Source of the DNA: an uncultured Candidatus Saccharibacteria bacterium
GTDB taxonomy: Bacteria > Patescibacteriota > Saccharimonadia > CAILAD01 > JADZBC01
NCBI GenBank assembly: GCA_964436255.1
Contig: CAYTBW010000005.1
Location: 6,374-70,373 of the forward strand
Length of the DNA: 64,000 bases
Direction of reading: 5' to 3'
Made by a program: the position numbers and the translations under genes. Under the pieces are notes generated by a model. That model made no database searches. It was not told where the DNA came from and saw nothing but the letters and a program-made list of their open reading frames with translations. Shown piece after piece: positions 4,683 to 64,000 of this stretch; position 1 is the first letter of the stretch; the number at the start of each line of letters is the position of its first letter.

Positions 4683-5745
4683 ATCGAAACACGACAACGT
4701 CGCCGTCATGCATTACGTAGTCTTTGCCCTCTAGGCGAGTCTTGCCGACAGCCTTAGCTTCGGCAAATCCGCCTGCAGCAATGAGGTCATCGTAGCCAGT
4801 TACCTCGGCTTTAATAAATCCTTTTTCAAAATCAGTATGGATTACTCCAGCGGCTTGCGGGGCAGTGGCACCAACCGGAATAGTCCAGGCACGCGTTTCC
4901 TTGGGCCCGGTAGTAAGGTAGGTTTGCAAGTCGAGGATACGGAAGCTAATTTGCACCAGGCTATCAAGGCCACTTTGTTCTTGGCCAAGGCTTTGGAGTA
5001 GCTCGCTAGCTTCCTCGTCGGGTAGGTCTTGAAGCTCTGCTTCGATCTTGGCGCACAGGAACACAACGGGGGAGTTGCCAGCTAGTTTGGCTAGCTCGGC
5101 CTGTTTAGCCTTGTCGGCCAGCCCCGCTTCATCGAGGTTAAACACATAAATGAATGGCTTGGCAGTTAGGAGCTGCAGGTCGGCGATCGATTCTGGCAGC
5201 TCGCTATACGTGTGGCTAATCAACTCTCCATTATCGAGACTCGCGTTGATTTCTTGCAATTCGGCGACTATCGCACCAGCCTTAGGGTTGGTCTTTGCTT
5301 CGCGCTGTGTGGCTTCAATGCGCTTTTGCACCGTGGTAATGTCGGCTAAACACAACTCAGTTTTAATAGCATCAATGTCGTCCTGCGGATCAACTTTACC
5401 TTCTACGTGAATTACGTTGTCGTCATCAAATGCCCGCACGACTTGTATAATCGCATTTGTTTCACGAATGTTCGCGAGGAACTTGTTACCAAGTCCTGCT
5501 CCTTCAGACGCCCCACGCACAATGCCGGCGATATCCACGAATGTTACAGTTGCGGGTAGGGTGTCGATGGAGCCGGATATGCCAGCGAGCTTTGCCAGGC
5601 GCTTGTCAGGCACTGCTACAATACCAACGTTTGGTTCGATTGTGGCGAACGGATAGTTGGCTGCTAAAATGTTGTTTTTGGTTAGGGCATTAAATAGCGT
5701 GGACTTACCGACGTTTGGTAGACCCACGATGCCGAGGGATAGCAT
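4672..5745 (-). CDS. ychF: Ribosome-binding ATPase YchF (Obg-family GTPase)
   Basis: 357 aa; N-terminal P-loop GIVGLPNVGKSTLFNALT, G-domain + C-terminal TGS-like region. Confidence 0.9.
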   Translation of the reverse strand: MLSLGIVGLPNVGKSTLFNALTKNNILAANYPFATIEPNVGIVAVPDKRLAKLAGISGSIDTLPATVTFVDIAGIVRGASEGAGLGNKFLANIRETNAIIQVVRAFDDDNVIHVEGKVDPQDDIDAIKTELCLADITTVQKRIEATQREAKTNPKAGAIVAELQEINASLDNGELISHTYSELPESIADLQLLTAKPFIYVFNLDEAGLADKAKQAELAKLAGNSPVVFLCAKIEAELQDLPDEEASELLQSLGQEQSGLDSLVQISFRILDLQTYLTTGPKETRAWTIPVGATAPQAAGVIHTDFEKGFIKAEVTGYDDLIAAGGFAEAKAVGKTRLEGKDYVMHDGDVVVFRFSS

Positions 5746-42140: not shown

Positions 42141-42216
42141 GCCACCTTAGCTCAGTTGGTAGAGCGACGCTTTCGTAAAGCGTAGGTCGCCGGTTCAATC
42201 CCGGCAGGTGGCTCCA
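42141..42216 (+). tRNA. tRNA-Thr (anticodon CGT)
   Basis: 76 nt; GCCACCT acceptor, D-loop AGCTCAGTTGGTAGAGC, anticodon loop TTCGTAA, T-loop GGTTCAATCC, discriminator U, CCA. Confidence 0.8.
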
Positions 42217-61772: not shown

Positions 61773-61849
61773 GGGCCCTTAGCTCAGTTGGCTAGAGCGC
61801 TTCCTTGACGTGGAAGAGGTCAGTGGTTCGAATCCTCTAGGGCCCACCA
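61773..61849 (+). tRNA. tRNA-Val (anticodon GAC)
   Basis: 77 nt; acceptor GGGCCCT/AGGGCCC, anticodon loop TTGACGT, T-loop GGTTCGAATCC, CCA. Confidence 0.8.
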
Positions 61850-61867: not shown

Positions 61868-62494
61868 TTGGAGGTGAGGGTGTCAAAATTATCACAAACA
61901 GAAGCTCGCGCGTACCTCAAGGAGCATAACGTATTGAGGGAGAGTGGGCATTATGTTTACACCTCGGGCAAACATGGCGATACGTACCTGAACAAAGATG
62001 CCTTGCTACCGCACGTGGAGCTGGTAAGTGAGATATGCGAGCAAATAGCCAGCGAGTTTGTTGGGCAGGGCATTGATGCCGTTTTGGGCCCAGTGGCTGG
62101 CGGGGTGGTGTTGAGTCAGTGGGTGGCGCATCATTTGGGTAAGCTCGAAGGCCGCGAGGTGTTGGCCGTTTATGCCGATAAGCGCAAAACCGAAGGAGAG
62201 TTTATTATCCGGCGTGGTTACGATGAGATGATTCGCGGTAAGCGCATTCTGCTCGTTGACGATATTATCAACCAAGGCTCTTCCCTCAAGGGGCTGCAAC
62301 GTGAGGTTGCGCGGATAGGGTGCGAAATAGCTGGAGTGGGGTGTTTGTGTAATCGCTATGAATCAACTGCCGAGGACTTCGGAGTGCCAAAGCTGTACAG
62401 CTACATCGAATTCAAACTAAACATTTATGGGCCAGAGGACTGTCCCCTTTGCAAGGCCGGCATGCCTATGAGCAAAGGTCTGGGCCACGCTTGA
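61868..62494 (+). CDS. Type I phosphoribosyltransferase, PyrE-like
   Basis: 208 aa; PRPP-binding motif ILLVDDIINQGSSL; C-terminal CxxC pair. Confidence 0.6.
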   Translation: MEVRVSKLSQTEARAYLKEHNVLRESGHYVYTSGKHGDTYLNKDALLPHVELVSEICEQIASEFVGQGIDAVLGPVAGGVVLSQWVAHHLGKLEGREVLAVYADKRKTEGEFIIRRGYDEMIRGKRILLVDDIINQGSSLKGLQREVARIGCEIAGVGCLCNRYESTAEDFGVPKLYSYIEFKLNIYGPEDCPLCKAGMPMSKGLGHA

Positions 62495-62706
62495 ATTGTG
62501 CTAGGCTTTCGGCTATGCTTGGGCTAGATAAAGAGAGTGTTTGAGCTTAGTTACCACCTAGGCAAGCTCCGCGGCTGACGACGCGTTACAGGTCAGGGAA
62601 GAGTGATCCACCAAGGATAAGCCCGGTGGAACCCCCCAAGATCTTGGGGCCGGGCAGCATCATTTTGGTGGTTTTTGTATAATATTACAAAGTTAGGAGC
62701 ACATAT
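62491..62706 (+). promoter_or_regulatory. Promoter + T-box-like leader upstream of thrS
   Basis: TTGAAT-17-TATGCT promoter; AGAGAG motif; candidate Thr specifier ACC-A at 62553; GGTGGAACC (62625) matching T-box UGGN; long terminator helix CCACCAA...TTGGTGG + T5 (62605-62676). Confidence 0.45.
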
Positions 62707-64000
62707 ATGGCAGATCAGGCAAATATCGAAGCAATGAGGCATTCACTCGCGCACATCATGGCTGCGGCGGTGTTCAAATTGCAACCTGTCGCGCAGTTTG
62801 GCGTGTGGCCAGTGGTGGTGAATGGCTTTTATTACGACATTAAGCTAGCCGAAACACTCAGTAGCGATGATTTGGCCGGTATTGAGACTGAGATGGCAAA
62901 GATTATTGATGCCAAGCTCGACTTTGTGCGCGAAGAATGGCCAATTGACGAAGCGATTAGCTTTTTTAAGGACCACAACCAGCCTTTTAAGGTCGAGCTG
63001 CTGACAGATCTCAAGACGAAAGGCACAACTGCTGTAAAGGATTCTGGTGACGAAAACCTAGTCGGGGATAACGTTGCGTCAGTTACAACAGTTACGGTGT
63101 ATCGCACGGGTGACTTTGTGGACCTATGTCGAGGGCCACACGTAGAAAATACGTCTGAGGTCGGAGCGTTTAAGCTCACTAAGCTGGCCGGTGCATACTG
63201 GCGCGGCGATGAAAAGAATCCTCAAATGCAGCGTGTTTACGGAGTGGCGTTTGCTACTCAGGATGAGCTTGATCGCTACCTGGCTATGCTTGAAGAGGCC
63301 GAGAAGCGCGACCACCGCAAGATCGGTAAAGAGCTTAATCTGTTTGTGTTCTCAGATAAGGTCGGCTCTGGTTTGCCGCTCTTTACCCCCAAGGGAACAA
63401 TATTGCGCGAGCTTCTGAACGAATACTCACAAGCTCTGCGACTCGCACTTGGGTTCGAAAAGGTCTGGATTCCTCATGTAACCAAAAAGGAGCTTTACGA
63501 AACTTCAGGACATTGGGACAAGTTTGGCGATGAGCTATTTCTAGTAAAGAGTCAGGAAACGAGCGACGAGTTGGTACTAAAACCAATGAACTGTCCTCAC
63601 CACCAGCAAATTTACGCTTCACAGCCCCATAGTTATCGAGACTTACCTATTCGATACCTGGAAACAACTACGGTATACCGCGACGAAAAGAGTGGTGAGC
63701 TAGGTGGCCTGTCTAGAGTGCGCTCCATTACCCAGGACGATAGCCATATATTCTGTACGCCCGAGCAGATCGAAGGCGTGCTAAGTGAACTAACGACCAT
63801 TACCAAGGAGTTCTATGGTGCGTTGGGAATGAAGTTACGGGCCCGGCTGTCTAAACGGGATGAGTCTGATGCGTATCTGGGGGACAAGGCAACTTGGACG
63901 CAGGCTGAGTCGACGTTACGTAAAGTTTTAGAAGAAAGCGAACTGGAGTTTTATGAAGCAGAGGGTGAAGCGGCTTTTTATGGTCCCAAAATCGACTTTA
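62707..64000 (+). CDS. thrS: Threonine--tRNA ligase (N-terminal part, runs off window)
   Basis: Open to window end; ThrRS N-terminal TGS/editing-domain motifs (MRHSLAHIMAAAV..., RDHRKIGKELNLF, HQQIY). Confidence 0.9.
   Translation, partial: MADQANIEAMRHSLAHIMAAAVFKLQPVAQFGVWPVVVNGFYYDIKLAETLSSDDLAGIETEMAKIIDAKLDFVREEWPIDEAISFFKDHNQPFKVELLTDLKTKGTTAVKDSGDENLVGDNVASVTTVTVYRTGDFVDLCRGPHVENTSEVGAFKLTKLAGAYWRGDEKNPQMQRVYGVAFATQDELDRYLAMLEEAEKRDHRKIGKELNLFVFSDKVGSGLPLFTPKGTILRELLNEYSQALRLALGFEKVWIPHVTKKELYETSGHWDKFGDELFLVKSQETSDELVLKPMNCPHHQQIYASQPHSYRDLPIRYLETTTVYRDEKSGELGGLSRVRSITQDDSHIFCTPEQIEGVLSELTTITKEFYGALGMKLRARLSKRDESDAYLGDKATWTQAESTLRKVLEESELEFYEAEGEAAFYGPKIDF

Follow-up and report, generated by a model that had tools for sequence, protein, structure and literature searches.

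Does a bacterium of the Candidatus Saccharibacteria, a lineage in which T-boxes are unexpected, control its threonyl-tRNA synthetase gene (thrS) with a T-box riboswitch? The question arose from a 64-kb stretch of Candidatus Saccharibacteria DNA (hereafter, the window; positions follow window numbering, and the leader is read on the + strand). An initial annotation had placed a T-box-like leader upstream of thrS at 62491-62706, with the threonine codon ACC as specifier, a UGGA element facing a tRNA that ends in UCCA, and a terminator before the gene, all of which our analysis bore out. We consider the thrS leader very probably a threonine-specific T-box that acts by transcription attenuation and represents a minimal architectural class. 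The annotated span required revision: the element itself occupies 62535-62655 (+), whereas 62491-62530 is a predicted promoter rather than RNA, so that it would be unable to provide a long Stem I with its 5’ strand.

A search with the threonyl-tRNA synthetase (ThrRS) fragment encoded in the window recovered 80 loci, nearly all labelled Candidatus Saccharibacteria, Saccharimonadales or Patescibacteria, at 61-92% protein identity. With the window, these loci made up 81 sources and 582 kb in all (individual sequences are cited by L numbers). Fifty-seven of the 81 sequences had the word [GA]GTGGAACC upstream of thrS, at a distance of 70-340 nt, and the upstream sequences carrying it shared one common plan. 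Three alignments were prepared: A2, the window clade of 13 leaders (the window, L001-L010, L013 and L016); A3, 24 other leaders; and A4, 55 leaders fitted to a model. From A3, which excludes the window clade, we built the covariance model R1. With filters off, R1 matched the window once, at 62535-62655 (+), in a full-model match of 39.8 bits (E 2e-8); the second-best score in the 64 kb was 9.3 bits. One R1 match was found in each of 55 of the 81 sources, always just upstream of thrS, and none elsewhere in the 582 kb.

The proposed pairing was well supported within each alignment. In A3, 88.1% of cells were paired, against 33-38% with slid partners, and compensatory changes occurred in 20 of 28 pairs, values equalled in 0 of 500 shuffles (given below as shuffles, 0/500); two of its helices, the C-stem and Stem IIA, were both 100% paired. 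The window clade gave corresponding values in A2 of 90.4% paired and 25-42% with slid partners, with 17 of 35 pairs compensatory (shuffles, 0/500). For A4 they were 88.8% and 22-47%, with compensation in 24 of 25 pairs (shuffles, 0/500), although these counts lean towards the structure because the alignment was fitted to the model. At the level of sequence comparison, then, the leaders form a family with a common structure.

These results bear on the simplest alternative, that an ordinary leader and terminator carry T-box-like words by chance. An absence of Rfam matches (described below) would suit this explanation, as would the abundance of the bare 9-mer RGTGGNACC, which is not enriched in the window (3 matches versus 3.4 expected). 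Chance does not readily account for an element shared with covariation by 55 homologous leaders, for a window match at E 2e-8 from a model that excluded the window clade, or for a specifier restricted to threonine codons, and we regard it as vanishingly unlikely. Two further T-box-like 9-mers, at window positions 4864 and 54022, were discarded as occurrences at the chance rate inside long open reading frames (ORFs), and AGTGGTACC at L006:1249 (also in L007-L009 and L041) was set aside since it lies inside a long ORF reading ...GKWYL....

The specifier provided a test of amino acid identity. In the window, the specifier ACC and the purine A that follows it occupy 62553-62556 (+), and ACCA is invariant in the window clade. 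Among the 55 aligned leaders the triplet was ACC in 49, ACG in 3 and ACU in 3, all threonine codons; the following base was A in 53 and G in 2, and hence a purine in 55/55. Specifier variation is therefore confined to the third position of the threonine codon, as predicted for a threonine-specific T-box. We view this restriction as the strongest single argument for function that the sequences offer, and on the same comparative basis we regard the threonine specificity of the family as established. The bulge sequence UGGAACC was present in 55/55 leaders.

We then considered which tRNA might be recognized. The window encodes a tRNA-Thr at 42141-42216 with the end ...GGUGGC-UCCA, discriminator U and anticodon CGU; as annotated, UGGA of the bulge is complementary to the UCCA end of this tRNA from the same genome. 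The initial annotation had also matched the specifier to this tRNA. This part of the claim failed, because anticodon CGU reads ACG and not ACC; the cognate would be tRNA-Thr(GGU). ACC is the commonest threonine codon in the long ORFs of the window (252/851), and therefore tRNA-Thr(GGU) is the expected ligand. Neither the window nor any fetched locus contained tRNA-Thr(GGU), and the only tRNA near thrS was tRNA-Val(GAC). The bulge base N is always A in thrS leaders, so that covariation between N and the discriminator cannot be read there. A metagenome pattern scan for relatives with a non-A bulge base returned canonical T-boxes or noise, and none of 80 loci exceeded 16 bits with R1, the pattern being a narrow one. 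We also tried ACG in the IIA loop (62577-62585) as a specifier for tRNA-Thr(CGU); this candidate was rejected, as the segment is a strand of IIB and IIA and is fully re-coded in relatives.

How is the codon presented? A script parse and the three alignments gave the following order of parts: K-turn, upper helix with specifier loop, Stem IIA/B, purine string and Stem III, antiterminator, and terminator. A script check located every motif of the initial annotation where it had been reported: AGAGAG at 62532-62537, ACC followed by A, the element GGUGGAACC at 62625-62633 that contains UGGA, and a GC-rich helix ending in UUUUU at 62672-62676, upstream of the ribosome-binding site AGGAG at 62695-62699. 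Some of these motifs required another reading. AGAGAG, although present, does not represent the AG bulge that a Stem I platform would carry; its 3’ bases belong to GAGU, the 5’ strand of the C-stem.

Stem I is ultrashort (62535-62569, +), with the same layout in 47 of 57 leaders by automatic parse. The 4-bp C-stem of its K-turn pairs GAGU (62535-62538) with GCUC (62566-62569), and is followed by the bulge GUUU (62539-62542) and by GA (62543-62544) opposite AA (62564-62565). Above these, GCUUAG (62545-62550) pairs with CUAGGC (62558-62563) to form the upper helix, closed by the 7-nt terminal loop UUACCAC (62551-62557). Pairing in the C-stem reaches 98-100%, each of its 4 pairs shows compensatory change, and there is covariation in the upper helix as well. 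Across the family, the K-turn consists of a 4-bp C-stem, a bulge of 3 nt (4 nt in the window clade) and a tandem GA opposite GA, surmounted by an upper helix of 5-6 bp and a terminal loop of 7-9 nt with the consensus ACUCACCAA. Tandem GA/GA with a 3- or 4-nt bulge was found in 44 of the 47 parsed leaders; the window has the 4-nt bulge, with AA on the 3’ side. Stem I closes in the 7-9 nt specifier loop, and there is no distal Stem I platform.

A small hairpin loop ahead of thrS raises the possibility of an operator bound by ThrRS itself. The thrS operator of E. coli mimics the anticodon arm of tRNA-Thr, and the Saccharibacteria hairpin shares both the position upstream of thrS and a loop of 7-9 nt, the size of an anticodon loop. 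Its loop bears a codon (ACC, ACG or ACU), however, and not an anticodon. The UGGAACC bulge with helices A1 and A2, the F-box and the purine string belong to T-boxes and would serve no purpose in such an operator, and the output is a terminator rather than occlusion of the Shine-Dalgarno sequence. We therefore consider a ThrRS operator very improbable.

Immediately 3’ of Stem I lies a Stem IIA/B pseudoknot (62570-62596, +), assigned from the 24-sequence alignment, with a pseudoknot topology predicted from the pairings. IIA pairs CGCG (62570-62573) with CGCG (62582-62585), IIB pairs CUGAC (62575-62579) with GUCAG (62592-62596), and an F-box-like CGCGUUAC is found at 62582-62589. Among the 24 sequences IIA is 100% paired, its third pair alternating between U-A and C-G, and all five IIB pairs show compensatory changes. 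IIB is also fully re-coded within the window clade (CUGAC/GUCAG, GCCUG/CAGGGC, UGUUCG/CGGACA, UCCAGA/UCUGGA). The family form is CGY paired with the RCG of an RCGNNA motif, together with a IIB helix of 5-8 bp. IIA (62570) adjoins the end of the C-stem (62569) with zero intervening bases, as it does in the 24-sequence alignment, so neither the window leader nor those aligned have a Stem II.

The 5’ part of the discriminator (62601-62620, +) consists of GAGUG (62601-62605), Stem III with the sequence AUCC-ACCAA-GGAU (62606-62618), and AA (62619-62620). This arrangement, GAGUG-AUCCACCAAGGAU-AA, fits the published consensus 5’-RRRxG-Stem III-AA-3’ (PMC7583486). The family version is a purine string AAGAGU(G), an optional Stem III, and then AA. 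Stem III is missing in about half of the family, where GAGU is followed directly by AAA and A1 (leaders without it include L012, L014, L039, L042, L045, L055, L067 and L068); Stem III has been termed indispensable in published work (PMC7583486).

The antiterminator (62621-62655, +) follows directly. Helix A1 pairs GCCCGG (62621-62626) with CCGGGC (62650-62655), helix A2 pairs CCCCAA (62634-62639) with UUGGGG (62644-62649) around the loop GAUC, and the 7-nt T-box bulge UGGAACC (62627-62633) lies between them. In the clade both helices show 100% pairing and compensatory changes, and RNAalifold predicts each of them independently. Insertions of 30-100 nt within helix A2 were seen in many sister leaders (L028, L037, L040, L044, L047, L056, L058, L059 and L071).

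Downstream of A1, the sequence AUCAUUUUGGUGG (62659-62671) pairs with 62608-62618 and is followed by UUUUU (62672-62676), together making up the terminator 3’ strand and U-tract (62659-62676, +). The pairing partner lies within Stem III, running from the distal half of its 5’ strand through its loop to its 3’ strand. The long terminator helix of the initial annotation is thus present, in the form of an antiterminator (A1, bulge and A2) wrapped by an outer terminator helix. Pairing in the terminator core CCACC/GGUGG stands at 98.5%, and five sequences have CCGCC/GGCGG instead, a compensatory change from A-U to G-C; variants include CCACCU/AGGUGG in L004 and CUCACC/GGUGAG in L005. Run unguided, RNAalifold gave the outer terminator helix, A1, A2 and the C-stem. 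We also examined CCACC (62609-62613) as an anti-antiterminator that pairs with GGUGG of the T-box. This pairing was rejected, as it would break the -20 kcal/mol A1/A2 hairpin, and covariation tracks the downstream GGUGG/GGCGG instead.

By these pairings, the window-clade terminator would enclose an intact A1-bulge-A2 hairpin instead of replacing it. The choice would lie between Stem III and the outer helix, two alternative pairings that we take as established from the sequences. Calculated energies were -20.4 kcal/mol for A1 with A2 and -3.2 kcal/mol for Stem III, giving -23.6 kcal/mol for the ON fold (Stem III, A1 and A2) and -31.0 kcal/mol for the OFF fold (outer helix, A1 and A2). The OFF fold is 7.4 kcal/mol more stable than the ON fold, and read-through therefore needs a ligand. 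A transcript ending at 62655 folds as Stem I, IIB, Stem III, A1 and A2, so that Stem III is present in its minimum free energy (MFE) fold. In the sister-clade leaders that we folded (e.g., L080, L053, L033 and L055), the 5’ strand of the terminator starts within the A1 3’ strand, taking up GAGAC; GAGAC...GCGC pairs with GCGC...GUCUUUUU, and A1 is broken in the MFE fold. As modelled, the sister-clade terminator is ordinary T-box competition, with A1 alone involved and not A2.

The terminator also bears on whether the T-box might instead act on translation by sequestering the ribosome-binding site, like the actinobacterial ultrashort ileS T-boxes. All ultrashort Stem I T-boxes described previously are translational (10.1101/2023.02.28.530422; PMC7583486), and in the window CUCC (62567-62570) is complementary to GGAG of the Shine-Dalgarno sequence. 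However, both the window clade and the sister leaders that were examined have a conserved hairpin directly abutting a tract of U5-U6. The Shine-Dalgarno sequence follows the U-tract at a variable distance of at least 19 nt and belongs to no covarying helix. In the window itself the distance is 19 nt, and the Shine-Dalgarno sequence takes part in no conserved pairing. A translational mode of action accordingly seems highly unlikely to us.

We propose that a transcript of the window clade would start a few bases 5’ of the K-turn and present ACC and the following A in the loop of its ultrashort Stem I. In the ON state, the anticodon of an uncharged tRNA-Thr (expected to be GGU, with discriminator U) would pair with ACC, and the 3’ UCCA of the same tRNA would pair with UGGA. 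The tRNA would lock Stem III, A1 and A2 into a stacked discriminator, allowing RNA polymerase to read through into thrS. Without this lock, 62659-62671 would invade the Stem III region at 62608-62618, and the always-formed A1/A2 hairpin, extended to the U-tract, would become a long intrinsic terminator. The T-box bulge of the window would thus always be displayed, and the decision would be whether Stem III stays folded, as it might if the purine string and the 3’ end of a bound tRNA clamped it. In published structures the purine string and the tRNA 3’ end stack on and track the antiterminator (PMC7583486; 10.1101/2023.02.28.530422). We infer tRNA binding, aminoacylation sensing and the use of Stem III capture as the switch from these arrangements; for the window clade we rate the capture mechanism itself as slightly favoured, given the folding models.

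Several observations weigh against a functional T-box. RF00230, the Rfam T-box model, found no match even at E values up to 10, either in 62300-62800 or in L080, the most consensus-like relative. The leader has neither the distal platform of Stem I nor Stem II, both of which are thought necessary for tRNA capture. The K-turn of the window is non-standard, with A-A in place of A-G and a bulge of 4 nt. Stem III pairs are invariant in the window clade, leaving covariation silent on whether Stem III pairs at all. The base pair of A2 next to the bulge is not a conserved G-U (U-A in 26, G-C in 15, C-G in 6 and G-U in 4; C62634-G62649 in the window). Finally, A1 and A2 form in both states in the window clade, so that the usual mutual exclusion of antiterminator and terminator does not apply.

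The most serious rival draws on some of the same features: the window-clade element could be a decayed T-box, now a constitutive or leaky attenuator with no response to tRNA. Decay would be compatible with the MFE folds of the window, L004 and L006, in which the terminator contains A1 and A2, with a Stem III of just 4 bp (-3.2 kcal/mol), and with the A-A pair and 4-nt bulge of the K-turn. Yet ACCA, UGGAACC and GAGUG-Stem III-AA are invariant across the 13 leaders, whose ThrRS proteins are 64-92% identical, and the helices around these invariant tRNA-contact positions change by compensation. Invariant contacts set within compensating helices argue for selection on tRNA binding and not for decay, which we judge improbable.

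Where, then, does the RNA begin? A promoter is predicted at 62491-62519 (+), with the -35 element TTGAAT (62491-62496), a 17-nt spacer and the -10 element TATGCT (62514-62519); from this promoter-like sequence, transcription is predicted to start near 62526. The -35 element overlaps the stop codon of an upstream phosphoribosyltransferase-like ORF. In the alignment of the 13-sequence clade, the only conserved positions upstream of the element are TTGA and TA...T. Of 54 homologous leaders, 33 have a -10-like hexamer, often of the TGnTAYAMT type, that ends 6-7 nt ahead of model position 1; in the window clade the corresponding distance is 15 nt. With a -10 box 6-15 nt upstream of the K-turn there would be no room for further 5’ RNA, and we infer that the RNA begins at or just before the K-turn. 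A generic promoter and terminator scan called neither feature: the promoter hexamers match at 8 of 12 positions, and the terminator was missed because its stem is bulged and nested.

We also evaluated the long Stem I that appears in an MFE fold, in which CUAGG (62501-62505) pairs with CCUAG (62557-62561) and ACCA falls in an internal loop. It was rejected: its z score was -1.36, the upstream bases are unconserved save for the promoter positions, and in other clades the -10 box abuts the K-turn. A perfect TATAAT occurs at 62678-62683, directly after the U-tract of the leader (UUUUUGUAUAAU) and ~12 nt before the Shine-Dalgarno sequence. It is kept only in L001-L003 and has no -35 box; judged by its sequence, it might act as a weak promoter, constitutively active and bypassing the attenuator.

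The initial annotation had proposed a scan with RF00230 as a check. No match was obtained at the gathering score (93 bits) in the window or in 20 homologous loci. As a positive control, the same model scored five canonical T-boxes in metagenome contigs at 102-107 bits, against that gathering score of 93. The codon is held in a covarying terminal loop of the K-turn hairpin, and a proper Stem I specifier loop is therefore present, so the absent Rfam match does not refute a T-box. In the reverse comparison, R1 gave weak matches of 16 bits (E about 0.1) to the 3’ half, from IIA/B to the antiterminator, of the canonical T-boxes L112, L150, L154, L157 and L090. These score >100 bits with RF00230, a faint cross-recognition between the classes.

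Comparison with known T-boxes showed both shared and differing features. Like class I T-boxes (RF00230; e.g., Bacillus subtilis thrS/thrZ and tyrS), the leader has a K-turn-like element at the base of Stem I, a specifier with a following purine, GGAGCUUC after the K-turn, a Stem IIA/B with an F-box (CG..CGUUA), a purine string followed by Stem III and AA, an antiterminator with the 7-nt UGGNACC bulge, and an intrinsic terminator before an aminoacyl-tRNA synthetase gene. Words common to the leader and the RF00230 consensus are GGAGcuuc, CGg...cCGUUA, AGuG-[Stem III]-AA and GGGUGGUACC. The thrS leaders of Bacillus also use an ACC specifier. Unlike class I, the leader lacks the distal Stem I with its AG bulge, distal loop and tRNA-elbow platform; it carries the codon in a terminal rather than an internal loop; it has neither Stem II nor S-turn; A2 lacks both an initial GCG and a conserved G-U pair at its base, the main steric sensor of the amino acid in T-boxes; and the terminator of the window clade pairs with Stem III, where class I terminators would use the 3’ halves of A1 and A2. 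In transcriptional T-boxes the Stem I distal platform is considered required, and Stem II is essential where Stem I is truncated (PMC7583486).

The ultrashort (class II) ileS T-boxes, as in Mycobacterium smegmatis and M. tuberculosis, share with the leader a short Stem I, a specifier in the terminal loop, the lack of an elbow platform, and a IIA/B pseudoknot plus a discriminator with Stem III (10.1101/2023.02.28.530422; PMC11297988). These actinobacterial T-boxes all regulate ileS and respond to tRNA-Ile (10.1101/2023.02.28.530422), and they are the sole known class with a specifier in the terminal loop. Their tRNA binding depends on a Stem II, which they retain, whereas the Saccharibacteria leader has none; they sequester the Shine-Dalgarno sequence, whereas the Saccharibacteria leader ends in an intrinsic terminator, stands before thrS and displays a threonine codon. 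With glyQS T-boxes the leader shares the lack of Stem II, transcriptional output and GC-rich codon-anticodon pairing (GGC-GCC in glyQS; ACC-GGU here). The glyQS T-boxes keep a long Stem I and elbow platform and do without IIA/B, which is the opposite combination.

On its sequence, we class the element as a T-box by mechanism and by homology of parts, lying outside RF00230 as modelled and outside the ultrashort ileS class. On balance we lean towards regarding it as a third T-box architectural class, the first to be reported from the candidate phyla radiation: transcriptional, built from a codon hairpin on a K-turn, IIA/B and a discriminator, lacking the elbow platform, Stem II and the G-U sensor, and with the switch moved to Stem III capture in one clade. 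The class II model of TBDB was applied to Actinobacteria genomes and to class I matches with truncated Stem I (PMC7778990), and a leader invisible to RF00230 would therefore have escaped that database. Our literature search found no earlier account of this class and no paper joining T-boxes with Saccharibacteria, TM7, Patescibacteria or the candidate phyla radiation.

The family does not extend to every thrS gene that we recovered. R1 found no leader in 26 of the 81 sources, 5 of which have too little upstream sequence, leaving ~21 truly without a leader (L064, L065, L070, L075, L077, L079 and about 15 other thrS loci). This distribution points to a T-box that was lost, or never gained, in part of the phylum. 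A low-GC group (metagenome-assembled genomes of Candidatus Saccharimonas sp. or of an unnamed bacterium) has tRNA-Val(GAC) ~115-125 nt upstream of thrS and no leader. In the window, tRNA-Val(GAC) lies at 61773-61849. There, and in nearly all of 60 loci scanned, this tRNA gene precedes thrS by no more than ~1-2.5 kb; its strand varies, and the window clade has a phosphoribosyltransferase-like gene between the two.

The gene downstream of the leader is identified as thrS by a TIGR00418 score of 419 bits against a cut-off of 384, though the gene is cut by the window end; with its Shine-Dalgarno sequence AGGAG and its ATG at 62707, it spans 62695-64000 (+) and runs past that end. Pfam recognized tRNA_SAD and the class II core in the ThrRS fragment. 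The encoded protein (62707-64000) begins in the editing/second-additional-domain region (MADQANIEAMRHSLAHIM...), with no N-terminal TGS domain among its Pfam matches, and the best stretch of its TIGR00418 alignment runs from profile position 79.

A second conserved unit, resembling a small-RNA gene of ~110-130 nt, was observed in L019 (about 2825-2965). It has counterparts ahead of thrS or of the thrS leader in L015, L022, L024, L027, L029, L034, L050, L060, L062 and L073, as well as in L012, L014, L032, L033, L045, L048, L052, L055, L063 and L066. The unit has a promoter-like UACUAGCCUUAUAAUACUAACC, a conserved core ACAGGUGAAGUUUUG(A/C)CGAGAUUGUUUU, and a terminator hairpin GGUUGAAUGA-UUGCGAGA-UCAUUCAACC followed by a U-tract. 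It gave no Rfam match at the gathering score in L012, L014, L032 and L033, and it was not present in the window. The leader terminators of L033, L042, L045, L048, L067 and L080, as well as that of this small-RNA-like unit, have AT-rich arms (UUGAAU...AUUCAA) and a UGCGAGA loop, which suggests a shared or mobile module in these Saccharibacteria. In the window, the word TTGCGAGA was not enriched (2 matches versus 2.2 expected).

If our reading is true, the family challenges two rules drawn from known T-boxes, namely that transcriptional members need a long Stem I platform and that Stem II is needed when the platform is missing (PMC7583486). A naturally occurring family that does without both, yet ends in a terminator, would define a minimal tRNA-sensing core, and so small a leader would offer structural biology and the design of tRNA-responsive switches a compact scaffold. 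How such an RNA would achieve fast co-transcriptional binding of tRNA and rejection of charged tRNA without platform, Stem II or G-U sensor is the puzzle that gives the family its interest. The finding would extend T-boxes to the Saccharibacteria, ultrasmall epibionts with almost no known regulatory RNAs, whose T-boxes are missed by standard Rfam-based annotation. A T-box in this phylum may fit a placement of the candidate phyla radiation within Terrabacteria, as has been proposed; another possibility is that it came from exchange with the actinobacterial hosts, the holders of the sole other ultrashort T-boxes.

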